Shown here in pieces: positions 2,475-61,243 of a DNA stretch of 64,000 bases (within the stretch, counting starts at the first letter, position 1; the number at the start of each line of letters is the position of its first letter). The position numbers and the translations under genes are program-made. The notes under the pieces are model-generated. The model ran no database searches. It was not told the origin of the DNA and worked only from the letters and a program-made list of their open reading frames with translations. The DNA comes from Prorocentrum cordatum. Taxonomy: Eukaryota. The stretch is from the NCBI GenBank assembly GCA_963575745.1, contig CAUYUJ010000064.1, forward strand, positions 1-64,000. Direction: 5' to 3'.

Positions 2475-4612
2475 CCCGGCGCCAGACTGCCCCGGCAATG
2501 CTCTTGAGCCCGAAAAACTTGGCGAAGAGACGGCCCGGGCGCTTCTTGACGGGCAAACTGCGAACGCGCCCAGCAGCCCCCCGAATCATGGACGTCTGAA
2601 ACTCCAAGATGCACGCCGGGGACACGGGTTCGTCTTTCGAGATTGCCTAAACCTTCTCCAAGAAAGCTTTGAACTCAGGACGCTCGCAAACCATTTTTCG
2701 AGAGCGGTTGATCGCCCTCTGGTCTGGGAAGGTTGCACTAGAGCTTTAGGACCACGGGCGCACGGTGTGAGAGGTCCTCGGCCGCCGCAACCTCCGCCAT
2801 CTTAGGAGATCTGATCCATCGCCCACCCAGGGTTGGAGACAAAGCACAGATTGGCATAGGCGAGGATACGTTGGGAGAGGCAGAAGCGAGTAGAATGAGG
2901 AAGTTGATGCTCCAGGAATTCTCTGAATATGCAAGCCCACTGCCCTCCATCTGACCAGCCCAGTCTGAGTAGACTGCGCTGGCCAAGCCCGGGTGGCCAA
3001 GCGCATGCCTGGGAAGCTCCGCCCCGAGATTGAAGCCACCAAGGAGTAACACCACGCACGCGGCAGGCGACGCACTCGTGGCGCGTGGCGCTCTGGCACC
3101 CAGGTGACGAAAGAGATTGGCCAGGGCGACGACGCCTTCTGCGCGCGCGCCTTCCCAAAAGAAATGATGAACAGACGCATCCAGGCGCGAGTGGTACACT
3201 AACTTTCGAAGCTCGGCAAGGCTGCCATGTGTCTTTTGAAACGCCGCGATACACATCTCTTTCACAAACTTGGACTGACATCATACTTTCTTCGACCGCA
3301 CATGCGCTCGGCGGTGAAAAAGCGCGCGGCAATTCCAAGATGGAAACTCAAGCGGCATGGCTTTGCTTCCTGGGCCTCTTCAAGCCCCAAGAATAGCGAT
3401 AAAAGCTCCACGTCGCCTCCGCTAGGGCCCTGAAGTGGCGCATGATGGCCTCCTACAGCACGTTCTTCTGGATGCCGATATCCACAATGATCTCGATGCA
3501 GTAGCGGATCTGCGGGGGGGGGTCGCAAGGAAGAGGGGCCACCGACGCCGGGGGCTTCCATGCTGCGCTGGTTTCGTCGCTATCCTTGTCCGCGAAGTAC
3601 GCTGGTTGGGCGCCAAGTCTGTGAGCCGACGCTTGAGTGATTTGAGGGCCAGCTCCCTCTTGATTCGGCATGGGGTTTTACTGCATACACGTATTTCTCA
3701 TGATCGACACTCCCGACGTCCTGCAAGCGGAACCTCTTCCACGTACCATCTGCATTGCGTAGAGCTCCACAAGATTGCGCAATTTCCCGACATGCATATG
3801 CTCGACGGCCTCGCACTTGAAGCACAAAGCGTTTGCCAATTGGGTCGCTCTGCAGCACAAGATCATCCTCTTCCACCGTGTTGCTTCGACTGAGCGACGC
3901 CCCCAGACCGGACGGCACGACCTGTTTCGACAGCGCCCATTTGGATCGGACAATGAGGATGGTCGAGTCGAAGTCTGTCTCTCGGAATCTGAAGTGACCA
4001 TGGTATCTGGTTTCTGGACGACGCCGTTGTTGACCTCGCCCCAGCACGCCCATGATGTGGTCGACCTCCTCCTCAAGTTTCTTGATTCGCTTGTCCGAAT
4101 TCTTAATGTATTGCCCAACTGTCGAGGGCCTGAACTCGCACCTCTTCGAAATCGAGTCACACAAGCTTGAAGCCGTACGAGACAAGGTAACGGTGCCCTC
4201 GGCTGCAGCACTCTGCTGGGCCTCGAGGGCCTGGATGGTGCAGAGCATCTCATCCTTGGCGTCGTCGACGTACTCCATGAGAGATTCCAGGGAAAGACCT
4301 CCTGCAAGACGCTCTTGCTTGCCTTGACCTGCGATGGAGGACCAGCGCAGCCAGACTCACTAGCCGTATCATCACCATTAACCGCGCGTGGAGGAGTATC
4401 CCCAAGACTCCTTTTCTGGCCATCACCTCCACCAGGCATTGCGCCAGAGATGTAGGGTGCAGGAAACCAGACGTACTGTTACGCGGATGCAACAGTGAGC
4501 TGACGATCCTGCCAGAAAGGGGGCAAAATGCCTTGCTGTTGAGCACTCGAGCACTCACCGAACACACCCTCCACGACCGACAAAAAGGTGGCTTCGGGCA
4601 ACGGCTTCGGGC
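2475..4612 (-). mobile_element. Decayed LINE 5' portion: ORF1 (~3580-4440) plus APE-endonuclease remnant (~2740-3330)
   Basis: Coiled-coil ORF1 (DKRIKKLEEEVD...GKRFVLQ...LRNADGTW) followed by IAAFQKTHG (QETH-like), LLGGFN (GDFN-like) and SHRAPV (SDHxPV-like); no RT seen; flanked by (CCT)n. Confidence 0.6.
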
Positions 4613-43100: not shown

Positions 43101-46100
43101 CAATGTCATGGGCGAGGCAATACGCGGCGGGCGCAAGAACCGAAAGTCTCTGCCCCTGCATCGGTCGAAACTCAAACACACTCCCACGTTCTCAACCAGA
43201 AGATGCTGGGGCACATCTTTTCGAACGAACTCAGCGCATCCCTCCGCAGGGACATTGCCAGCGCTCGGACCTCAAGGATCAAACTAAGTTGACCGCACTT
43301 CCACGCGCCCCAAAATCGAGGCGCCCAGCGACTGCGAGCCAGGCAGCTCGCGGCGATCTCGGGGAAGCCCAGATCGGCGTCGCACTCGCCCAGCGCCATG
43401 GCTGACTCTAGGCCATCGAAATCGCCAAAGGGCAGCTCGACCTCCTCGGCCGGCGGGGGCCCCGCGAGCTCCCGCAGCCCAGCGACCGCCAGGGCATGCC
43501 CCCGTGCCCGCACCGCGCGGACATCACGAAAACGGCCCTTCTCGCGGGTGCGCCCCGCGGCCTTCACCTCCCCATCGCTCCAGTAGCTTGCGGAGATACC
43601 AAATCCCCACTCCGAGGCGTCGCTAGCGCTGACGACCCGGTTCCACTTGGGCCACCAATCGGAGCACCAGAAAGGCATCCACCCCAGGAACGCCCGCAGC
43701 TCCTGCACCACGGAGTCCCAGAGCGGCCGCTGCACCGCGTAGTTCGTCGAGATGAATGCGCACACCGAATGAAAACACGATAGCGTCGGCCGACGCACCA
43801 GGCCACAGAAGATGCAGTGGCCCAGGATAGCATCCGCCATGGCCCCATTGGCTCGACCACGGTACAGGAGGTGTCGAAGCGCAGAGTGCACCCGCCAGTA
43901 GCGACGCTTCGTCAGCGCCGTCCGCTGGCTCTCTCCGTCCACGGTCACTCCAAGCGCCTCAACACACTCGCTGCGGACCTCTTCGCCGTGCACTAGCAGG
44001 TCGAAGCTCTTGAAGAGTTTCACCATCTCCGCCAAGGCCAGCTCAACGGCCTGTCGACGGTCGCCCATCACCCCCAGGTTGTCGACGCACACGCAGCGCC
44101 GAAGCTGGTGCACGCCACTGCTGAGAGCAAGCACCGCAGGGGCACCGTGGTCCTTCAGCGGCTGGGAGCCGCGCAGCGCAGGCACCTGTCGACACAGCTC
44201 CTCACCGATGTGCCGGCAGAAGAACAGGCTCTAAGTGAACCCCATGGGCAGCGCATGCGCCATAGGCACGACCATGTCGCCCTTCCGGGCGGGCCACCCA
44301 TCGATCGTCTCGCCCACCACGCCGACGTTCTCGGCCCTCACTGCCGGTTGCCCAAAATTCCGTGATAACCACTCTGGCATGATCAGCCGGTGGAACGCGT
44401 CCTTCACGTCCGCCACGCCCAGGCAAACTGGCACCGCGCCGCCCTCGAAGTCCTCGGCCTCGATCCCTGACAGCCCCTCCGCCGCCAGCAGCTCGACGCG
44501 GGGCGCCTTATTAAACCACTGGTTACTCTTCCTGCAGTCAAGTATCATTCGCATCTGCACCCGACCACTCTTCCAAACGAAGAACAGCCCTGTCTCCTCG
44601 GGGCAGGCTCAGCCGGGGCGCAGCAGCCCTCCAGCCCGGAGGCCCACGATGAAGTCCGCGTAGCGCCGTCGGCTGCGGCCCGGCCCAGGACCCACATATC
44701 GCCTGATAGGGTTGTCATGCACTAACTGAAGTCGATCTTCCTTCCGTCGATGCATTCGTCGGCCCTCACCCTCCGAAAATCGCCAGCACGCGTCGCTGAG
44801 CTCCGACAGAAGACGACAACCCATCACGCTCTCAGGTAGCGACACCGCATCACGTCGGTAGGGGGCATGCGTTCTGCTGGCGGGCTCGAACTCGTAGACG
44901 GCCCGACAATGCAAAAGCTCGCGGAAAACATCATGCGGCGACGGGACGGATTCGTCACCTGGCGCCGGCTGCATCCTGCGCAGGAGCCCCTCGGCGCGGG
45001 CGGCCAGCCCCGCGCGCTGGCATGCCACTCGCGATGGCCTCGCCTGCGTGGAAGTCGCATGCCGCGAGCCAGTTCAGAGCCGCGAGAGCCTCGTCTTGAA
45101 GCCCCCGCGGCCCTCGGCCCACGGCACCGATACCGCGGCGCCCGAGCGGCCGACGCGGCGAGGGGGAGATGTCCCGCGAGCCGCTGCAGGGCCAGAGGCA
45201 TCCGCGCCCCGCGTGCTGCGGGCGAAGGGTCGGGCTGCCCCCCCCGCCCGGGTCGCTGCTCATTGGGCCTCCGCCGGGGCATCGGCCCCCCGGCCACGGC
45301 TTCCTCGGCCGAGGGCGCGACCCTGGGGGGCCCCCTTCAGATCCCCAGCCTGCTCCTCTTCGCGGCTGCCCGGGGCAAAGCCGGTCGTCAGCGCCCGAAC
45401 ACGGGCGGAGCTCGCCTCGTTCTCCTCCCTCGCCCAGCGCACCCCGTAGATGCGCAGCGATGGGCCCACCGCGTCGGCCTGCGTGGTAACCCCATTGAAG
45501 TATCGGGCCATCCGCCATGAGGGAGCTGCACCCGGCTCGGCGCGCGCGTCGATGATGGGCTGCACACGCCGACAGATTTTCTCGAAGCTGACCAGGGAAG
45601 ACATGTTGAGCTGATCAAAGCTTCCGCCGATCATCAGCGCCTCCACGAGCGTCTCCAGCTCGTGAAAGGCGCGGTCCGACTTCCCGATGCGGCGCTCCAA
45701 GCACCACTGATCAAGCCAGTTCCTCGGGTCACCCCCGAACCGCTCCATGCGCTTCAGCAGGTGCAACACCGCGCACGGACCCTCGAGCGGCGCGTCGTCG
45801 CACACCTCGGTCGACGACTCGCGGACGATATCCCTCCACGTCTTGAAGCGCCCCCCGTGCGCGTCCACGTCGATCCACAGAGTCCGCACGTCATCGGGCA
45901 CCGCAGCCGCCTCGGCACCGCGACCGCCCAGCAAGCCCCTCTCTCCACCGGCCGAGCCCCCGCGCCGTTGCCTCCGGCCTTGGGGGGCGGCGCGCGCGAC
46001 GGAGCCGGCAGCGCCAGCGTCCGATCGCTGCGCCAGGGCGCGGCCTCGCTGGCCCCGGCGGCCGCGATCGCTGGTAGTTCAGGCGCGTCTCGCAGCAGCT

Positions 46101-49100
46101 GGCGTCGCCCCTCCGCAAGCGCCTCCACGTCGCTCGGGCCCACGAGCCTCGCACGGCCGTACCCATCCGAGCCCTGGATCAGCGCCTGATCGCCCCAGAC
46201 GTGAACCAGCTCTGTCAGCTCGATCACCTCGCCGATCTTCGCCAGGCCCAGCGGTTCGCACAGCATCCAGACCCCACCAACCCGAGGCGAGAGCGTCCCC
46301 ATGACGCTAACCCCACCGGCCCCGCAGTCCAGCACACGGAGCGCCCCGCCGATCTCGGCCTCGGTCGGAAGCGGCCTCGCCACGAAGCCCGGCTCCAACG
46401 ACGCGGTGCGACGGCACTCGGTCATCCGCGCGCCCAGCTCATCGGCGTCCGACCGCTCCTTAAAGCCGCACAGCCGCTGCGGCGCCGCGCGGTGGACACC
46501 ACCCGCGAGCGGCCAACAGCGGCAGGGCCCCGTGGCGTGATCCGCCGCTGTCAGGTCCTCGACCCAGACATCCCGATCTGGCGATATCACGTACCACAAC
46601 GCCTCCGACACCGGCCAGACAAGCACGCGCTCGTGGTCCACGTCGTCATCCACATAGGCGACGCGGACTTTCTCGCCCGGTCGAACCTCACGCAACCACC
46701 CCGCCACCGCGCCTCGCACGTGCAGCCGTCGTGACGGACCCGGGCGCGGCGGCATCCCTGCCGCGCGCGCCCGTGGTCGCCGCGGTCGCCCGTGGTCGAC
46801 GGCACTGGCACCCGGCCGCGACCGCATGTGCCGGCTGCGTCGCCAGCAGCGCGATCACCGGCCCCCAGGGCCCCGGCCCCTCCACGGGCTCGGGCCCGTT
46901 TGTGGCGGGGCAGCTCTCGCAGGCCGCGAGCGCCGCCTCGCAGCGGGCAAGCGCCCACGCTGGCGACCCCTTCGGGCCGCTGTCCGCCGAAACCGCCAGC
47001 GGAGGCGGCGGAGGCGGCGGGGGCGGGGGCGAGGGTGGCGCCGCTGGCGAGGGCAGGTCCCTCACGACCTGCGCCAGCTACAGCACCAAAACCGCCCAGG
47101 CCGCGCCGGCGCCGCCGCGCGGGACCATCGGCCAGGCCGTTCCTGAGCAGCTTGACCCTTGATGGCAAGAGGTAAACGATCGTAAACGGCACAACTGTGC
47201 AACAGCTAGATTGTTGATAGCGGTTTAGTCTATCTCTCTGTCTGCTGAGGGTGTGGAGGGGGAGCAGACGCTGAGTTCGTCCTCCTCCTCTGGCAGTGCT
47301 GGAATCCCGGCCAGGCGGTATCCCTCCTCAAGGGTGTACCCCAGGCTGAGTCGACGCAGGAAGCGAGTCAGGTGAATCGCCTCCCGAACAGGGATCGTGA
47401 GGGGGGCCCTCCGGCGCCACGGATGCACCAGGCCCGGCCGCGCCGCCACCAGCAAGGCACGCACGGAGGCAAGGAAGCGAGCACGGGCACGACGCGTTGC
47501 CGCAGCTGTGCCAATGCTCCTATTGCCCCGGGGCGTACTTTTGTTTTTCTGGCGCGCGCCCATGGTTCTTGAGCCAAACGGGTACGGACCCTCATCCGTC
47601 CCGCGGCTTGCCAACCGAACGACTGGCAAATGCAGCTCCTAGGCTCAGCTGTGTGGCTGCTGGCCCTCCCAGACGCGTCACCGCAGCCGGGGAGGGCCAA
47701 CTAATGACTATGTTGTCCCGGCCGCGTGGCCGATGAACGTTTGGAGGGCCAGGTTTGGCCCAGGAGTTTCGGCCACGCTCGCAGGACACGGTTTGTGCCC
47801 GCGGAGACAATAAATCGCACCCGGAGTAAGCTTAACAGACGTGATTCACAGGAGCTAACCTACACGTGCTTCTACCACAAAGTTAAATCTTACAAGTGCA
47901 ACTCGCGAAGCGAGCTTGAATATATACTATAAGTTGTGGAGAACAGAATGACAAATTGCCCCCAGAATGCTCTCGGCAAGTTCGCGCTGCAGTGAGCCGG
48001 CGTGCCGGCAACTTGTCGCACCAGCCTTTACACTGCTCGCACCAGCTCTCTGCTCGCACCGGCAACTTCTCTTCTCGCACGGGCATCGCTTCTTCTCGCA
48101 CGGGCATCTCCTTGGCAGCCACGGAAGCGCTCACTGATAGCCACAGGCATGGCGTCTGAGGAAAATGAGAAGTATACCCCCGAAGTGGCGACACGCCGGC
48201 GTCCACCCAGCTAGCGTGGACATTAGAAGTATACAAATAATCATTACACGAAAATGCAATGCCGCGGGACCCTGCGAAAAACGACCCCTTTTGGCTGAAA
48301 TGGGTCGTTTTCTCCGGCGGCACACATTCGTGAGGCGTGACCCCAAGGCGGCCCATCCCCGAGACATTAGCTAACAAAGGCGTGATAAACTTGGCATGTT
48401 ACATACGTGGCGAAGGCGGATACTCGGGAAAAATACAAGGACGTGTGGCAGTTTTTCCACACCCCCCTCGCCGAGCAGCGTGTGAGAACATTCAGAATGT
48501 CTGGCGACAAGGCCTCAAGGCCTGGTGCGGATCATGCCCATGAGGTCGCGGGCCTCCATGAACCTTGCCGGGGACATGGCCTTCGTGAAGCCGTCGCCCC
48601 GGTGCGTCGCGGTGGGCGCGTGCTTGAGGATCATCGCGCCGCGCTCCACCACAAGCTCGTGCAAGAACCCGATGGACACCTTGTGGGTTCTCTCTAAGAA
48701 CTTCAGTTTCTTGCTGTAGCCCTTAGTGACCGCAGAGATGGCCTGCGTGTTGTCCACGAGCGCCACCAGCGGGATGTCGATGCCAAGCATCCGCTCGAGG
48801 AGCATCTGCGTGGGAATGCCCTCGTGCTTGGTGTTGTGGCTGAGAGCCACCGTCTCCGCTTCGGCTGTCGAGCCGGCCGTGGACGTCTGCTTGCGAACAG
48901 CCCACGAAAGCGGCCAGCGCCGACCGGAAGTCGGGCTGTGAAGTTCCACCAGGACGCCGCCTGTAGACTTCGTGTGCTCTGAGTCGCCAGCCCAGTCGGC
49001 GTCCGACCACATCAGGAGCTCCAGGTCGAAAATGTCATCGGGGGCCATCTCGGCGGCGAGGGCCATGGGGCCAGCGGCCTTCAGGTAGGCGTACAAGCGA

Positions 49101-52100
49101 ACCAGTGCTGCGTCGTGGGTTGTGCTCCACCTTGACACCACCGAACAGAGGCGCTGCACGGCGACGGCGATGTCTGGCCGTGCGACCCGGGACAAAAACA
49201 GCAACGTCGCAACGTGCGAGGCGCAGCTGCCGGCGAAAACGCCGGGGCGCACGCCGTCTTCAGCCCACTGCTCCGGCGAGAGAAACGGCGACGTCACCTT
49301 GCGGAGCTCACCCCCGTACTCGCTAGCGAACCTGGCGAGGGCGTTGGCCACATAGTCGTCCATGTCCGTGTGGAGCCGACGAGCGGCCGACGGGCAGGCA
49401 GGGTTGACCGGGTCCATGGTGTAGCGGGCCCCCAAGTACCTCTCGATCTCCTGCTCCCGCTCCTTGAACACGATCGCCGTGTCGAGCGCCCTCCAAAATG
49501 GCCCGGCGATGCTCGGCGGAGCGATCATGAGCATGTCGTCCACGTACACGACGAAAATGCCTCCATCAGGGTGCACATGAACTCCAGGATGGTCGAGGCC
49601 AGCGGGCTCCCAGCCATGCTGCTTGAGAATGCTGTTCAACTTGGCTTCCCACAGCGCCCCGGCCTCGGGGTGGCCATACAGAGCCTTCTTGAGCCGGCAA
49701 TGAGGCCGGACATACTTAGGTCTCTGGCGTGCTGCGCCGTCCAAGAACCAACTGTCTGGCCACCACTCCCGTGGGAGCTCGACGTAGGTGGGGATCCGGA
49801 ACGGAGTGTCGATCAGAGCCTGGAGGTATGCAGCCTCCGCGTCCCTCAGGCTGACCTCCCGGCCGGCGAGGGCCGCGGCCGCCAGGGCAGCGCGTGCCGC
49901 GGCGAAGGATGCCGGAGCATTGGCAACTTCTTCGAACAGGTCTGCAGCCGACACGCCCGACTTAGTTCGGATGTTGGATCCTTGAAATACCACTCTAGCC
50001 TTCCATTGCTGAGCATCTTTTCCAAGCTCTTCTCCTTTTATCCCCAGAATTGCAAACACCCGGCCCAGCATAGCGTCAGAAAGGGACTCGTCGTTCAGAA
50101 GGTCCCGCAAACTGTGAACATCGCTGGTGTCCCAGACCTGCTTGGAGCGCATCCCGTGCAGCTCCTTCTCCAACGCCTTGCGGGCACCGTCGCAATCTGC
50201 CTCGGACGATTTGGGCTTGACCACCCGTGTCACGAGGGCGCACCACAGAGGGTGGCGCGGCGGGCCAGCATCATGCTCACGATGCTCGTGGCGCGGGTCG
50301 TCGTCACTGTCGTCGATGGCGGATGTGCTTTTGAAGAATGCCCGGGACCGCGGGACGCCAGGAGCAGCAGGTAAAATGCCTGCACGGCGAGCGCTCCAGA
50401 AGAGACGTGCGAACTGCTCCGTGTACTGGGCGGTCTGCTTCGCAATGTTCCCGCGGCAGCGGACGAACTCCTTGCTGTCGGCAGCTTCGTCGACGGAATA
50501 ATTCTCGAAAGTCATCGTAACGGAGTCGTCCGTGGAGCACAGCGTCCACTCCTTCTGGGTGTACACCACGCGGCCTGCATGCTGATGCTGCTGGCCGACG
50601 GCGGAGGCCGATACCTTCACGAACTTGCCGCCGACGGTGTTGATCAGCTGGTGCACGCGGTCGTTCGACCACAGGTCGGAGTTTGTAGGCCACTCCCAGG
50701 TGACGTCCTGGCCCTTGTCACGAGCGTAGGTGCACACCTTCGCGACATTGGTGATCAAGGCCCGCGTCACCGCCATGGGGACGGCTGTCCAGATCATGGT
50801 CCTCAGTTTCTTACGGGCCGCCCTCTTCAAGATGTCTTGAACAGCTCGGAGGGTCTTCTCGGCGGCAAGGTCAAGCTGCTCGGTCACGCGGATGGCGATG
50901 CACCTGGCCGGGACGAAGGCGGACAGGCAAGACTCCGGAGAGCAGCACAGCTCGACGAGCATCTGGTTGTACTTGCCGCTCATGATGGCTGGCATCGCTG
51001 CGGCGATGATCTCAGGCACCGTGGGCGCCTGTATGACGAGGCCAGCCGGTGCTGCTGGAGCTGCAGGTCCTGCGGCGCGGCCGGAAGCCACGCAGGCATC
51101 GCTGGAAGGAGCATGGGCGTGCTGCCCGCCAGCTGCGGCCGAGCCTCGGTGCCAAGTATGCCGAGGCGGCTCGTAGTACACCTCGTGCGGGGTGCCCGAG
51201 AAGGCAGAGCACGCGAGGCGAGGCATCGATGGGACGGCCGTCACGACCTTGCCCTTCGCCTTCAGGTTCTGATAGTCCTCGCGCCTCTTCTCCTGAGCTG
51301 CGAACCCTGCGGGGTCAGCAGCCTTCCACTTGTGACGCTCCGCCTGCCTGTGCTTCATGGTCAGGGAGAGCCACACCTCTGGCTCGAGCGTAGGCGGACG
51401 AGTGGACCACGGTGGCGCCCACACCGAACGCCTGATGTGGCCGTCGGCGCCAAAGTCGTCTCGCCTCCAGCCGCTCGGCGGCGAGCGCCCGGGTCCAGGC
51501 TTGATCTCCCGCTGCACGACGGGGTCGGCGTCGACGCCGAGCCGCGCAGCTTCGGCGACGTCGGGCTCGACCGCAGCATGACCAGAATGAGGATCGTCGG
51601 CGCCTGCGTCTCCATCGCCGGCTTGGCCCACGACGTCCAGGCCCTCCTGGGAGTCAGGATCGATGGCCAAGGCGACGTCGAGCATCGAAGCCCTCGTCGA
51701 AGAGAACTGGGGGCTGTTCTCCTTCAGCATCCCGTCGTACGCAAGCACGTCCTCCTCGCAAGGCTCGTCGGCGATGAGCTCATAGCCCCCCTCGGCGTCG
51801 TCGTTGGTGTGCGGCGCCGGCAGGCTGAGGTCACGGAATGCGCCGTTGAACGCCAGGCGCTGCGCTAGAGGGAACGTCACCTTCGACGGGAAGACGACGT
51901 CGGCGACGGTGCGGACGCTGACTCTAGAGGCCCGGCCGTCGGCCAGGATGGCCGCGAGCGGGACGATCAAGTAACTCTTGGCCCACTGCTCGGCCGGGCC
52001 GGCCGCTACGCCGACCAGAAGTGCAGGCACCAGTCGGTTCTTCCATTTGCTGGAGCTGCAGGGGTCGCCCTCCAGCTTCGGGAGCTTGGAGCCGGCTGGC

Positions 52101-55100
52101 GGCCGGAAGAGGACGAGGGCGCCGAACGGGTAGATGACGAAGGGAGCTGGCTCCCCAAAGCGGCGTTGCCACCGAGTGAGGCCGGCCTTGTTCTTGACGC
52201 TGCCGTTGTAGTTTGCCGCCCAGTGCCGCTCGGCGAGAGGCCACCAGCGCTCGCTGAGGCCGGACTGGTGGAGGGAACATCGCGCGCCCTCGATCGCCAC
52301 CCGATTCATGCGCTCGATCTTGCCGTTGGCTTCAGCCCGGCGCGGTGTCGATTGATAATGCGCGAGTGGGCGCTTGCTGCGCACCACCCGCGCTGCTGCC
52401 CTGAACTCGGGCGCAGAGTCGGTCCACCACCTCCGAATCTTCGGCGGGACGGAGTCGAAGGAGCCCACGCTGTTGAGCACTGTATCGGTGTCCCGGCGGC
52501 GCGCCGGGTACGGCGAGAAGAACTCCGTGGACTCGTCCAGGATGTGCAGGCTGTAGGGCGATGCCTTCCTCGCCTCAGATCCGCGCTCCATTTCGATGTG
52601 GTCCATGTGCACAAGGGCCCCGAAGGACTCGACGGAAGCGTCCGGTGCATGAAGCTCCACAGCTGGAGTGGGGCGGCGCGAGCTGCGGCTCTTCGCCGTC
52701 TTCCCGAAGTCGCACCCCGCGCAGACGCCGGGCGGGCATTTCGGCAGGTGCGTGGCCAGGTGGAGGATGGACTGCGGGTCGTTATGGATCGATGCGTCGA
52801 TCACCACGTCGTCCTCGCAGACACCGCACTTCAGCGGGATCCCGTCCCAGTCAATCTCCGCGTCGTGCTCGGTCGGATCGCCCTCGAGCACGCGTTCGAA
52901 GTCTTGCAGCGCCTTGTCTGGGCCACCAGCGCTGGCAGCAGGCGCAATTGTCGAGGGCGGCGCTGGCGGCGCCTCCCCAGGATCGGCAGCGGCATCCAAG
53001 GCAACAACATTGGCTGAGGCCTGCTGGTCGGAGTGCGCACTGAGGGGCCCCCCTGCGGGAGGGGCCACATGGTCGGCCGCTGCGGCGGCCTGGGCTGCGG
53101 CGTGGGTTGCCCCATTCGCCGCTCCAGCGACCTCCGCTGCGGCGGGGGCTGCGTGGTCAGCCTCTGCGGAGGCCATGGCAGGCATGCATCGCACCTGTCG
53201 GCGAGCGCCGGCCGGCTGGCTGGGGCGGCTGCCCGCCACCATCGGGACGAAGTTCTCCACGCGGACGTCGACCTGCGAGCCCTCAGGCGCGTAGAACTCG
53301 GGCTTGTCAGCGAACGGCTCCCACACGAAGCGGTAGCCATGCTGGGCGCAGCGGCGCCCGAGCGAGAGCGCCGGAATGGTATCTGGCAGCTCGATGGCCT
53401 CGGCATCCTCGTTCAGCGCCTCCAGGCCCACAGTCACGGTGGTCTCGGGCGCGATCACGCCGTTCGCCGTGCTCAGGAAGCAAAGGTCGTCGCGCTGGCG
53501 GCGGACGCCTTGGGTCCCTACGGGGACCAGGTCATTGCCAGTGCCGGAGTCCAAAGCGAACTCGTCAAGGTCGTCGCTGGGGCCACCAGTGGCCGGGGCG
53601 GCGCGGCAGACGGCGCCCGGCACTTTGGCCTTGCCAGGGCCAACGTGCTTGAACGCGCAGTTCTCGCCGTTGGTGCACTCGCCCTTGGGCCAGAAGCGGC
53701 ACGCTGGCCGGTCATCTGGCTTGGCCGCGGCAGCGGCGGGGGAGGTGGCGGCGGCCGCCGCTTTCGCCTTCGCCTGCGCCTTGGCCTTAGCCTTAGCTTT
53801 GGCTGCGGCCTCAGCTTTGGCCTTGGCCTTGGCTTTCGCCGCGGCGGCACCTGGCGCAGAGGCGGCCCCGACGTGCTCGAACTTGCAATTCGCACCGAAG
53901 CGGCACGAACCATCCCGAGCAAACATCTGGCAGATCTCACCGGAGCGGACCTGCGGCGTCGCTTGCGCCTTGGCCTTCGCAGCAGCGGTGGCTGCGGCTG
54001 CGGCTGCGGCGGCCTTGGCGGGGGCGGCCTTCTGAGGCAGCTTCATCAAGTCGTCCCGCACTTGCCCGCGCTGACGCCGCACGATCTCCCGCCGCGCGGC
54101 GTTGTAGAGGAAGGCGGAGGTGCGGGTCGCGGTGCCCTCCTCGGCGGCATCATAGGTCACGAAAGCGGGCTCCAACCCCTTGCACTTCCGGAGCTGGCAC
54201 TCGAGGAGCGAGCACAGCATGTCTTCGTCCGGCACCTTGGCCAAGGCCATCAAGGCGTAGTCCCAGGCATTCAAGAAGCCCTCGAGGTCCCCTCCGAACC
54301 GGAGGCCCACCAAGGTGGTGAGGTCGACGCTCATCGCCTGGCCGCGCTCGATTGTGTACCTGTAATACACCATGTACAGCGCGCAGCGGCCGGAGAGCGG
54401 CAAGCCCATCCTCGACCGCTCCTCGCGGTAGATCAGCAGCTCACGCTTCAAGTTGCTGTTGGCGATGGCCAAGACGGCCTCGGCGAGCGCGGAGTCGAGA
54501 TCGTCCCACCTCTTCTGCTTCTCCGCCAACGCCTCGAGCTCCGAGATGTCGTTGACGGTCTCGATGCGCTGCATCCACCGCATTGTGCGGCGCTTGCTGC
54601 GCTTGCTCGCTGCGTTCACCTTCACGTAGGTGTCCTGCACCCACTCCCGAAAGCCCACGGCAGAGGGCAGCGGGTCCAATGTCAAGGACTTCACCGCTCC
54701 CTTCCGCCGGCGGATGTCGTCCTCAGTCGAACTCGACGAGCTCGAGGGTGACCTCTTACTCTTTCTGCTCTTCCGGCTGCGGCGCGCGCCGGAGGCCCCA
54801 GGCGTGCTAGGCGACGAGTCGTCGCCGCCAGCGCCGCCGTCACCGCCAGGGCGGCGAGGGCCCCGAAGCCCAGGAGGGAGGTCAGGCTGAGCTGCGGGGG
54901 CCTGCGCTGCGGACGGGCGCTGCTGCAACTGGGTCGGGAGCCTCTGGACTGGCTCGGACCGCACGCTGCCACCGGCGCCAAGGCGGTCTGGCGGGCCGCC
55001 TCCGCCGGGGGCGCCAGCGGCCGCGATGTGAGCCCTCATGGTGACCCCGGCCCCATGGCCAGGGAGCACGCCGCGATTCGGGCCAGGGCGCGGCTGCGCG

Positions 55101-58100
55101 TGCGGCGCTGGCGCCGGCTCGGACGCGGCCGCCGCGCCCGGCTGTGGCGCGGCCAACGGCCGCGAGGGCGTGGCCATGTGGAAGTGCTGCGGCTGCGTGA
55201 GGACGCCGTCCGCAGAGACGAAACGCCCTGTCAGGCGGTCAGGCTGCGGTTGCAGCGGCGGCGGAGGAGGCTGGGAGAGCACTGGATCGTGCTGCGGCGG
55301 CTGCACCCGCCGCTCCTCGGCCACCGATGCGATGTGTTTCCAATTCTCGACCTCCTGCTCGAGGATGTCAACACGCTGCTGCAGCGCGGTCTGCACCTCA
55401 AGCTGCTCGCCGCGCTGCGCCTCAGCCGTGGCTGCGAGGTCATTGGCCCATTGCTGGGCTCGGTCTCTGAATGCATGCACGCGCTGCTCGGACTCGGTGA
55501 GCCGAGAATGGAGCACCGTGACCTGCGCCTCCAGCCCTGCCGCGCGGTCGGCCCGGAGTTTCGTCTGCTCCTGCTGGGCCTCCAGATTGGCAATCTGGGC
55601 TTCGTATTGGCGAAGCTGCAGCCTTGTGCGGCCCTCGAAGCCGACGAACGCCTGCTGTGTGGAGGACTCGAGCTGCGCCGCTGCGGCGGCGCGCTGCTGA
55701 GCCTCAGCGGCCTGCGCCTGCGACTGCTGCTCTGCCCTGGAAGCCGCGGCCTCCAGTTCGCCCGCGGCGGCCAGGCGCGAGGAAGCCGTGGAGACCACTG
55801 CGCTGAGCTCCACGCGCTGCGCCTCGAGGTTCCGGAGCGCCTGAGCATGGATCGCATCGCACTCCTCGCGGCGCCTTTGGTCAGCAGCGGCGTATGCAGC
55901 AGACTCCGCGGCCAGGATGCCGGCAAGCTGCTGGCGGTCCGTCGCCGCCATCTGCTGCTCTGCCGCACGGAGCTCGCGCGAGCTCACCGCAAGTCTCTCG
56001 TGGCACTCGTGTTGGGCCGCGGCTGTCGCCTCGTCCAACCGGCGCTGCATGAGCCCGCGCTCGGACCGGAGGTCTGCGTGAGCCTGGGCGCTGAGAGCCT
56101 CCGTGCGTTCCAGAAGAGCCACCTCCAGACGCTCAGTCAACGCTGTTTCTTTCGCCTGGAACTCAGACTCGAGGATCGCCGTCTGGGTCTCGAGCGCCGC
56201 ATGCTGGTCAATGATGCGGCTGAGCTCGCCGGTGAGGTCGAGCCCTACAGCGCTGGGTTCCTCATCATCCGCGCCAGCGTACAGCAGCGTGCGGCTGCGG
56301 TCCGCCCGCGACGCATCAGCGACGGGCACAGCGGCCGAAGGCGTAGGCGCGGCCTGCGACGAGGCACCGCGACCGGATCTGCCTTCCACACCGCGGCCGC
56401 GGAAGGGCAAGACAGGCCGATGCGCCGGCCGCGGGCGAGGCGGCGGCATGCCGGCCGCAGCCTCCGCGAAAACTGCGGGGAGCACCAGGCCGAGGTCCTC
56501 GTCCGCAGCATCGGCGAGCGGGATCATCTCGCCAAGGTTGTTGGGATTTCTAGTCGCCATGGTCTCAAAGAGCTTTCGGCTGATAACCTGTTGATAGCGG
56601 TTTAGTCTATCTCTCTGTCTGCTGAGGGTGTGGAGGGGGAGCAGACGCTGAGTTCGTCCTCCTCCTCTGGCAGTGCTGGAATCCCGGCCAGGCGGTATCC
56701 CTCCTCAAGGGTGTACCCCAGGCTGAGTCGACGCAGGAAGCGAGTCAGGTGAATCGCCTCCCGAACAGGGATCGTGAGGGGGGCCCTCCGGCGCCACGGA
56801 TGCACCAGGCCCGGCCGCGCCGCCACCAGCAAGGCACGCACGGAGGCAAGGAAGCGAGCACGGGCACGACGCGTTGCCGCAGCTGTGCCAATGCTCCTAT
56901 TGCCCCGGGGCGTACTTTTGTTTTTCTGGCGCGCGCCCATGGTTCTTGAGCCAAACGGGTACGGACCCTCATCCGTCCCGCGGCTTGCCAACCGAACGAC
57001 TGGCAAATGCAGCTCCTAGGCTCAGCTGTGTGGCTGCTGGCCCTCCCAGACGCGTCACCGCAGCCGGGGAGGGCCAACTAATGACTATGTTGTCCCGGCC
57101 GCGTGGCCGATGAACGTTTGGAGGGCCAGGTTTGGCCCAGGAGTTTCGGCCACGCTCGCAGGACACGGTTTGTGCCCGCGGAGACAATAAATCGCACCCG
57201 GAGTAAGCTTAACAGACGTGATTCACAGGAGCTAACCTACACGTGCTTCTACCACAAAGTTAAATCTTACAAGTGCAACTCGCGAAGCGAGCTTGAATAT
57301 ATACTATAAGTTGTGGAGAACAGAATGACAAATTGCCCCCAGAATGCTCTCGGCAAGTTCGCGCTGCAGTGAGCCGGCGTGCCGGCAACTTGTCGCACCA
57401 GCCTTTACACTGCTCGCACCAGCTCTCTGCTCGCACCGGCAACTTCTCTTCTCGCACGGGCATCGCTTCTTCTCGCACGGGCATCTCTTTGGCAGCCACG
57501 GAAGCGCTCACTGATAGCCACAGGCATGGCGTCTGAGGAAAATGAGAAGTATACCCCCGAAGTGGCGACACGCCGGCGTCCACCCAGCTAGCGTGGACAT
57601 TAGAAGTATACAAATAATCATTACACGAAAATGCAATGCCGCGGGACCCTGCGAAAAACGACCCCTTTTGGCTGAAATGGGTCGTTTTCTCCGGCGGCAC
57701 ACATTCGTGAGGCGTGACCCCAAGGCGGCCCATCCCCGAGACATTAGCTAACAAAGGCGTGATAAACTTGGCATGTTACATACGTGGCGAAGGCGGATAC
57801 TCGGGAAAAATACAAGGACGTGTGGCAGTTTTTCCACACTAGATCATTACTGTGCCCGCACTCTCATGATCAGCATCAACATCAGCAGCAGCAGCATAAT
57901 CACCATCACCACCACCATCAGCATCAGCATCAGCATCTGCATCAGCATCAGCATCATCATCATAATCCTCCTCATCAGCAGCATCATCATTATTCTCATG
58001 AGCATCAGCATTATAATCATCATCTGCAGCATCATCATCATGATCAGACGCAGCAGCACCAGCAACAAGAGCATCATCAACAACAACATCATTATCAGCA

Positions 58101-60563: not shown

Positions 60564-60623
<60 letters not shown>

Positions 60624-61184
60624 CCTCTCGTCTTCCTCTTCATCCTCATCCTCCTCGTCCTCCTCCTCCTCCTCCTCCTCCTGCTCCTCCTCCTCCTCCT
60701 CCTCCTCCTCCCCCTCCTCCTCCTAATTCTCCTCCTCCTCCCTCTCCTCCTCCTCTCCCTCCTCCTCCTCCTCCTCCTCCCCCCTCCCCCTCCTCCTCCT
60801 CCTCTCATCCTCCTCCTCCTGTTCCTCCCTCATCCTCCTCCTCTTCCTCTTCCTCGTCCTCCTCCCTCCGCCGCCTCCTCCTCCTCCTCCTCTTCCTCTT
60901 CTCCTCCCTCCTCCTTCCTCCTCCTCCTCCTCCTCCTCCTCCTCTCCTCCTCCGCCTCCTCCTCATCATCATCACATCATCACCCTCCTCATCCTCCTCC
61001 TCCCCTCCTTCTCCTCCACCTCCTCCTCCTCCTCCTCCTCCTCCATCCCTTCCTCCTCCTCCTCCTCTCCTCCTCCTCCTCCCCCTCCTCCCTCTCCTCC
61101 TCCTCCCCCTCCTCGTCCTCCCTCTCCTCGTCCTCCCTCCTCCTCCTCCTCCGCCTCCTCCCCCTCATCATCATCATTTTCATT

Positions 61185-61243
<59 letters not shown>

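Follow-up and report, generated by a model that had tools for sequence, protein, structure and literature searches.

DNA methyltransferase (DNMT) domains carried by retrotransposons have been described in the dinoflagellate Symbiodinium, where SymbioLINE-Dnmt and SymbioDIRS-Dnmt3 are borne by LINE and DIRS elements (de Mendoza et al. 2018, PMC5890265). The abstract of that article states that charophyte retrotransposons have also acquired DNMTs, one of its section headings that such DNMTs can catalyse CG methylation, and a passage on the Copia superfamily that this group 'lacks any DNMT domain'. The locus analyzed here lies in a 64,000 nt stretch of Prorocentrum cordatum DNA (assembly GCA_963575745.1, contig CAUYUJ010000064.1, positions 1 to 64,000; hereafter the window) and is a structurally intact, very recently inserted Ty1/copia-type long terminal repeat (LTR) retrotransposon. 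Its single gag-pol open reading frame (ORF) contains, upstream of the reverse transcriptase, a domain insert whose family has a predicted fold closest to that of C5 cytosine methyltransferases, and the copy in the window has lost the Cys-bearing loop by an in-frame deletion that is shared by sister copies. The explanation favoured here, with a probability of about 60%, is that a Copia clade carries a divergent DNMT-fold module and that one of its lineages lost the catalytic loop of this module and continued to transpose, the remnant persisting as a folded spacer or passenger.

A first-pass annotation of this DNA had proposed an apparently catalytically dead C5-DNMT-like domain within an intact and recently transposed Copia polyprotein, at 50390-50970. 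The peptides that it quoted are all present in the minus-strand frame (a 10-residue peptide at 50930-50959, WTAVPM at 50774-50791, VTWEWP at 50687-50704 and a 15-residue peptide at 50399-50443), whereas the interval itself is out of frame and translates with stops, the in-frame stretch belonging to the ORF at 48515-56560. The precedent that it invoked, of dinoflagellate retrotransposons with DNMTs, is sound for LINE and DIRS elements but does not extend to Copia elements, going by the passage of PMC5890265 quoted above.

The domain family and a deletion shared by sister copies

The insert comprises approximately 190 amino acids (aa 1868-2054) between the integrase motifs and the RVT_2 reverse transcriptase domain. 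A phmmer search of 1.84 billion cluster representatives returned 159 proteins at E<=1e-3, with 39 at <=1e-10 and two at <=1e-30, and a hidden Markov model (HMM) of the family produced a single match in the window, at 50381-50998 (E 7e-57). The insert is a real conserved domain and not a chance string of motifs. When the domain segment was compared with Pfam there was no match, the top hit being an unrelated family at E 0.09, and comparison with PDB sequences likewise gave none. Conservation was assessed by aligning the window with 42 proteins that cover >80% of the family profile, the other 108 of the 150 matches listed being fragments that were left out. One residue is shared by at least 36 of the 42 homologues (>=85%) in 21 columns, four of which have gaps in a few homologues, and the conserved motifs are E-x-C-C-x3-S (ELCC-x3-S), R-x-T-x3-D, S-x-P-C-T-x-G...N, E-W-P-x5-W, G, K-x-W, G and Y (in Y-T). 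The Cys of P-C-T-x-G and the Glu of E-W-P are invariant (42/42 homologues for each), and Pro precedes the Cys in 37 of 42.

Pfam analysis of longer relatives located the domain upstream of RVT_2 in P0052, P0057, P0094, P0082, P0118 and P0152, and among the six longest relatives with a Pfam reverse transcriptase hit it is upstream in five. CCCH fingers like those of the window element are present in P0057 and P0094. Ten members were looked up, of which one is from a named organism, Amphidinium carterae (another dinoflagellate), and the others are from environmental sources. The insert represents an unannotated domain family in the Pol of a dinoflagellate Ty1/copia clade with a CCCH-finger Gag. 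The source of relative P0003 is labelled 'merc'. Two scans of metagenome contigs and one of viral contigs detected no related loci, and relative P0032, used as a tblastn query on 50,697 phage records, matched none of them at E<=5. A homologous-protein search restricted to near length was likewise negative.

Further modules were observed in two relatives. In the Amphidinium carterae protein P0052 an additional insert at approximately 1180-1330, between the domain (843-1070) and RVT_2 (1428-1659), gave a weak 2OG-FeII_Oxy_3 match (E 0.006, 17.9 bits against a cut-off of 27, profile positions 2-96 of 98), making a dioxygenase module in a dinoflagellate Copia Pol possible. In P0156, where the domain occupies residues 2450-2686, CCCH fingers are accompanied by a clear match to the Tpt1/KptA RNA 2'-phosphotransferase family PF01885 (E 7e-27) at 3106-3296.

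At the position of the Cys that is present in 42/42 homologues, the sequence of the window is W-T-A-V-P / M-A-V-T-R-A-L. It has exactly 20 residues fewer here than its six closest intact relatives (34-50% identical), and across all 42 homologues 20-30 residues (median 24) lie opposite the gap. Projected onto the intact member P0007, the lost piece corresponds to residues 137-156, consisting of the Cys, the loop, a short helix (144-149) and the loop before helix 157-176. Of the 21 conserved columns the deletion covers four (C, T, G and N), and 16 of the 17 others are retained in the window, the sole changed column being a Ser to Ala at 1926. The alignments thus indicate that the 'PM' of the window is the junction of a 20-residue in-frame deletion and not a Cys-to-Met change, and because such a deletion removes both the Cys and its loop, the window domain is incapable of Cys-dependent covalent catalysis. 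The earlier description of a catalytically dead domain, shortened after PM, is therefore borne out as to the missing Cys and the shortened segment, which is this deletion, but not as to cause, which it had taken to be mutation of PC to PM.

The same junction is found in the two nearest recorded proteins, P0152 (97% identical over 206 aa) and P0153 (95%), both source-named Prorocentrum cordatum, and reads T-A-A-P-M-A-A-T in the latter. It is also spanned by a 528 nt contig from run X1 (50385-50912; one difference, no gaps) and by a 193 nt contig from the marine metagenome run X3 (50743-50933; four differences, no gaps), the two runs being from different studies. No inserted letters are listed near the junction in these contigs, which, as contigs drop rare variants, attests the short form while leaving room for a long one. 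Since P0152, P0153 and two bridging contigs share the junction, the deletion is not private to the window copy but fixed, on this evidence, in a lineage that still transposes, and the possibility raised by the first-pass annotation, that sister copies all retain PC, does not hold. A 42% identical Copia protein also named Prorocentrum cordatum, P0155, retains P-C-T-A-G-C-P-W, and a fourth so named, P0154 (46% identical), has a different gap of approximately 14 residues that includes the Cys. In P0010 the P-C is retained and approximately 16 residues after it are missing. The gaps in P0010 and P0154 could represent recurrent loop loss or gene-model artefacts.

Among 40 contig variants listed (138 further ones stand outside this list), 35 lie in the ORF: 11 are synonymous and 24 non-synonymous, a stop codon and an altered Y-V-D-D being among them, which is the pattern of neutrally decaying copies. 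One of the 35 falls in the domain, a number without power for the domain itself. The observed/expected ratio of CpG was 1.02 for the element (47212-57839), 1.08 for its methyltransferase-like domain and 0.95 over the entire window. CpG is thus not depleted, despite the heavy CG methylation reported for dinoflagellates, and the element and its domain give no hint of self-methylation.

Predicted fold and motif layout

The fold was predicted with AlphaFold2 for P0007, which is about 30% identical to the window domain, from a 142-sequence alignment of P0007, the window domain and 140 matches of <=700 aa, seven longer and two repeat-like proteins being left out. The resulting model had a mean predicted local distance difference test score (pLDDT) of 86.5 and a predicted template modelling score (pTM) of 0.80, with block means of 92-99 over residues 61-290, and consists of an alternating strand-helix fold with a terminal small sheet and two helices. 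When it was compared by VIA-align with 48,161 PDB representative chains, ranks 1-16 were all of C5-methyltransferase type (Z 8.5-11.4), headed by DNMT3B (Z 11.4, root mean square deviation 4.0, 187 residues aligned), DNMT3A (11.3) and a prophage enzyme and M.HhaI (both 10.7), and including MET1, DIM2, M.MpeI, Dnmt2, a C5-carboxymethyltransferase, Dcm, DNMT5, DNMT1 and ZMET2. These 16 enzymes come from bacteria, phage, fungi, plants and animals, and the C5-methyltransferase alignments cover 171-201 residues, from the first strand through the last helix of the model. Among the best 50 rows 21 are of DNMT type, DNMT3L being present at Z 8.3, while the best other fold was FtsJ at Z 8.4, with short-chain dehydrogenases at 7.7-8.2.

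Foldseek against PDB likewise placed DNMT3A/3B and DNMT1 on top (best E 1.8e-3, template modelling scores 0.36-0.46). Against the BFVD viral models it gave five matches at E<=1e-3 (1.2e-5 to 7e-4), two of them annotated as cytosine methyltransferases; rank 1 was an unnamed 210-aa protein, A0A0A0RJX0 (E 1.2e-5, TMt 0.64), and rank 4 was A0A2P0VN45, 'Putative cytosine DNA methyltransferase [Tetraselmis virus 1]' (E 6.3e-4, TMt 0.61). In language-model feature space the nearest Pfam-bearing clusters carry PF00145 (viral, 221-228 aa), with values of 0.85 (P0007) and 0.86 (window domain) that are to be read as leads only. The predicted fold of the family is closest to the C5 cytosine methyltransferase catalytic domain, in agreement with the C5-DNMT-like fold claimed earlier, this confident model being of an intact relative.

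In the P0007 model the invariant Cys (C137) follows strand 128-133 and the invariant Glu (E184) stands at the end of strand 180-186, which we take to be the strand ends that bear the Pro-Cys nucleophile (motif IV) and the E-N-V Glu (motif VI) in M.HhaI and DNMT3A. In C5 methyltransferases motif IV provides the nucleophile and the motif VI Glu protonates the cytosine. Motif spacings in P0007 were set against those in seven bona fide enzymes (the Dcm of E. coli and six methyltransferases from phages):

Motif I to II (E78 to T101): 23 residues in P0007, 23-25 in the seven enzymes
Motif II to IV (T101 to C137): 36 in P0007, 42-62 in the seven enzymes
Motif IV to VI (C137 to E184): 47 in P0007, 38-47 in the seven enzymes
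Motif VI to VIII (E184 to K233): 49 in P0007, 40-43 in the seven enzymes
Motif VIII to X (K233 to Y277, the Y-T helix): 44 in P0007, 104-218 in the five of the seven enzymes with both motifs found

With 44 residues from the motif-VIII-like Lys to the Y-T helix there is therefore no target-recognition domain. The consensus of motif I is F-x-G-x-G, present in the seven comparison enzymes; at this position the family has no conserved Gly column and instead has E-x-C-C-x3-S. E-W-P stands in place of E-N-V, its Glu being kept in the window as E1956. The motif order of the first-pass annotation is accordingly upheld, the conserved motifs of the family following I, II, IV, VI and VIII in order and roughly in spacing; a glycine-rich motif I and a target-recognition domain are absent. 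On this modelled layout the family is DNMT-like in fold and probably in catalytic arrangement, without being filed under PF00145, and may descend from a DNMT.

Competing explanations

According to the favoured explanation, the family would keep Pro-Cys after its fourth strand and an invariant Glu after its fifth, at the positions of the nucleophile and the protonating Glu. In the window lineage an in-frame deletion of 20 residues would have taken the Cys, the loop and the short helix, with the strand now presumably running straight into the next long helix, and the lineage would have gone on transposing. Because it kept transposing, Cys-dependent chemistry would be either dispensable for transposition or supplied in trans, and what remains most likely serves, between integrase and reverse transcriptase, as a folded spacer or passenger and not as an enzyme.

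Several results weigh against this explanation. The model is of P0007 and not of the window protein, whose fold follows by alignment, and the window domain folded without an alignment gave an uninformative pLDDT of 37. Compared with generic Rossmann folds the lead in Z amounts to about 3 units, and Foldseek against PDB produced no match at E<=1e-3. PF00145 matched neither the window (E<=1) nor any of 34 members (E<=5), the family profile gave 0 matches to PDB sequences at E<=10, and hhalign returned probabilities of 0.07% against E. coli Dcm and 0.14% against a 7-sequence DNMT alignment; the check for PF00145 membership proposed at the outset is thus negative at the sequence level, the Pfam and hhalign comparisons both being insignificant. 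The glycine-rich cofactor loop is absent from the family, so that its members may not bind S-adenosylmethionine. Identification of Cys137 with motif IV and of Glu184 with motif VI is by order and spacing in the model, and would stand or fall with them. The variant data speak neither for nor against selection on the domain following the loss of its loop. Finally, in P0156 (3710 aa, from an environmental source) the domain comes after a weak reverse transcriptase match and not before it; given that position, this protein may be a fused gene model. The local alignment from the 7-sequence hhalign comparison, which aligned ELCC with motif I and P-C-T with P-C-Q, was set aside, as at 0.14% it is not evidence.

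Much of the above would also be expected if the family were not methyltransferase kin, and were instead another Cys-dependent enzyme or a non-enzymatic module whose scaffold is generically Rossmann-like: no sequence or profile comparison with DNMTs reaches significance, all Foldseek E-values against PDB exceed 1e-3, neither a conserved motif-I glycine nor a target-recognition domain is present, and short-chain dehydrogenases reach Z 7.7-8.2. Such an origin is nonetheless unlikely, as it would have to accommodate top 16 places, out of 48,161 chains, held exclusively by C5-methyltransferase-type enzymes from bacteria to animals and aligned from first strand to last helix, the matches to BFVD viral cytosine methyltransferase models (E 1.2e-5 to 7e-4), an invariant Cys and Glu that follow the same strands as in DNMTs, and two language-model look-ups that independently reach PF00145-bearing clusters, although these last are leads only.

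It is somewhat less likely again that the loop-less domain is a repurposed pseudoenzyme, selected, by analogy with DNMT3L, as a non-catalytic partner or reader. Were it so, it might, at similarly long odds, bind and modulate methyltransferases, whether those of the host or those of other elements, or else attach to modified DNA and so guide integration or escape from silencing. The roles suggested in the first-pass annotation, as a methyl- or hmU-DNA reader, an integration-targeting module or a decoy, would be repurposings of this sort. Consistent with this, the deletion is in frame and takes only one surface loop of the model, 16 of the 17 strongly conserved positions outside it are kept (including the invariant E-W-P and Trp), the deleted form sits in a lineage with a very young and fully open copy, and DNMT3L itself is among the fold matches (Z 8.3). 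Against it, there is no sign of purifying selection after the deletion and the contig variants look neutral; the 14 amino-acid differences among three copies, counted by eye, are powerless here, as by our own estimate approximately 0.8 hits at invariant sites would be expected under neutrality. More doubtful still is the extended proposal that a minimal C5-methyltransferase-type domain, without glycine loop or target-recognition domain, was captured independently by the Copia clade, within the superfamily described as devoid of it, and that the actively transposing Prorocentrum lineage turned it into a DNMT3L-like pseudoenzyme interfering with or recruiting methylation machinery for the good of the element. 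That the loop is missing through a private mutation or an assembly error of the window copy is very improbable, nothing having been found in its favour and the same junction being present in P0152 and P0153 and in gap-free contigs of runs X1 and X3.

DNA methylation is extensive in dinoflagellate genomes. Should the fold assignment prove right, a DNMT-type module missed by standard profile searches is carried by a widespread Copia clade, and both methyltransferase censuses in these genomes and models of who methylates what would be incomplete. The Prorocentrum lineage is a natural experiment in which the same backbone occurs with and without the catalytic loop, and because loop-bearing and loop-less forms share one genome, the role of the chemistry of the domain in transposition or silencing is directly testable. 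The weak 2OG-Fe(II) oxygenase match and the clear Tpt1/KptA domain of the relatives described above suggest, at the level of sequence matches, that the Pol region of these elements may be a hotspot for captures of nucleic-acid-modifying domains.

The host element and comparison with known systems

The host element has the make-up of a Ty1/copia retrotransposon, with LTRs and a target-site duplication, an RVT_2 match above cut-off and, upstream of it, integrase-like motifs unrecognised by Pfam. The two LTRs, of 1251 nt each, are identical at 1250 of 1251 positions, the lone mismatch being at 48111, and the 5-bp target-site duplication TAGAT directly borders the element on both sides, confirming the earlier claim of an intact and recently transposed element. 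The minus-strand gag-pol ORF has no stop under the standard code. The features are as follows:

47207..47211, no strand: target-site duplication TAGAT, left copy; identical 5 bases at both element ends
47212..48462, minus strand: 3' LTR of the minus-strand element, 1251 nt; matches 56589-57839 bar base 48111
48515..56560, minus strand: gag-pol ORF of 2681 aa (P0001), open under the standard code
48983..49003, minus strand: putative RNase H-like motif DADWAGD, aa 2520-2526, located in the translation; no Pfam match
49520..50014, minus strand: Copia-type reverse transcriptase, aa 2183-2347, including YVDD; Pfam RVT_2 E 1.1e-09, 38.7 bits against a cut-off of 31.6
50381..50998, minus strand: C5-methyltransferase-like domain in its loop-deleted form, aa about 1855-2060; family HMM E 7e-57
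50774..50779, minus strand: deletion junction, codons P1928/M1929, from alignments; relatives carry 20-30 residues here, the invariant Cys first
52121..52783, minus strand: putative integrase-like region, about aa 1260-1480, with a 15-residue motif and EANGKIER; no Pfam match
53534..53551, minus strand: putative aspartic protease-like motif DSGTGN, aa 1004-1009, read from the translation; no Pfam match
53645..53938, minus strand: two CCCH zinc fingers in the Gag part, aa 875-896 and 953-972; Pfam zf-CCCH E 1e-09 and zf-CCCH_4 E 6e-09, above cut-off
56589..57839, minus strand: 5' LTR, 1251 nt; one base different from the 3' LTR
57840..57844, no strand: target-site duplication TAGAT, right copy, identical to the left

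Pfam matched no integrase, protease or RNase H in the polyprotein, even when pieces were scanned separately, and the motifs resembling these three stand in Copia order as read from the translation. The first-pass placement of the domain between integrase and reverse transcriptase is consequently firm on the reverse transcriptase side (RVT_2, aa 2183-2347), while on the integrase side it draws on motifs read by eye and on the source name of sister P0153, 'Integrase catalytic domain-containing protein'.

The ORF begins with approximately 600 Ala/Gln/Glu-rich, coiled-coil-looking residues (aa 1 to ~620, 54700-56560), followed by Pro/Gly/Ser-rich low complexity before the CCCH fingers. This N-terminal extension matched no Pfam family and is unusually long for a Gag. 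Contigs of runs X1 and X2 join 57463-57623 in the 5' LTR to 48395-48429 in the 3' LTR, going back 9035 and 9229 nt, one of them with 4 extra letters; solo LTRs, tandem copies or LTR-LTR junctions in sister elements would all produce such joins. Short tandem repeats with periods of 9-15 nt begin within the end of the 5' LTR region and run on to its right, being dense from 57790 to ~59500 (148 register copies) and present again at 60582-61477 (16), and GC skew is strongly negative in the 58-62 kb bins (-0.46 and -0.55). Many antisense or overlapping ORFs of 100-570 aa occur on both strands of 45000-56000, for example on the plus strand at 53033-54751; as long antisense ORFs are expected at 65-70% G+C, they are no gene evidence.

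Compared with the PF00145 enzymes (M.HhaI, DNMT1, DNMT3A/B and Dnmt2), the family has its closest predicted fold in common, together with a Pro-Cys and a Glu that the model places after strands 4 and 5 and a similar motif order and spacing; it differs in having no significant sequence similarity to them, ELCC-x3-S for F-x-G-x-G, E-W-P for E-N-V and no target-recognition domain. DNMT3L, a catalytically inactive DNMT3 paralogue and host regulator with a known partner, resembles the window domain as a DNMT fold without a working catalytic centre and as a fold match at Z 8.3. Unlike this host regulator, the window domain is part of a transposon polyprotein and lost its centre through a clean deletion of a 20-residue loop. 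Small viral methyltransferase-like proteins of ~210-230 aa (A0A0A0RJX0 and A0A2P0VN45) share the compact size and gave the best Foldseek scores, but are 12-14% identical, have no sequence-search link and are free-standing viral genes.

A full-text literature search, with supplements and subscription journals outside its scope, yielded no description of a methyltransferase-like domain in dinoflagellate Copia elements. With the Symbiodinium LINE and DIRS DNMTs, as presented in the relevant passages of PMC5890265, the window domain shares its location, that of a cytosine-methyltransferase-type domain within a dinoflagellate retrotransposon coding region. The DNMTs described in those passages are found with Pfam's DNMT model and have retained their key catalytic residues; the window domain, in contrast, is in a Copia element, is invisible to Pfam and is without glycine loop, target-recognition domain and Cys loop. 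On those passages PMC5890265 is a precedent for the idea and not for the window element. Retrotransposon-borne DNMT-type domains are known already, and what sets this locus apart is the Copia host, the Pfam-invisible form and the deleted catalytic loop.

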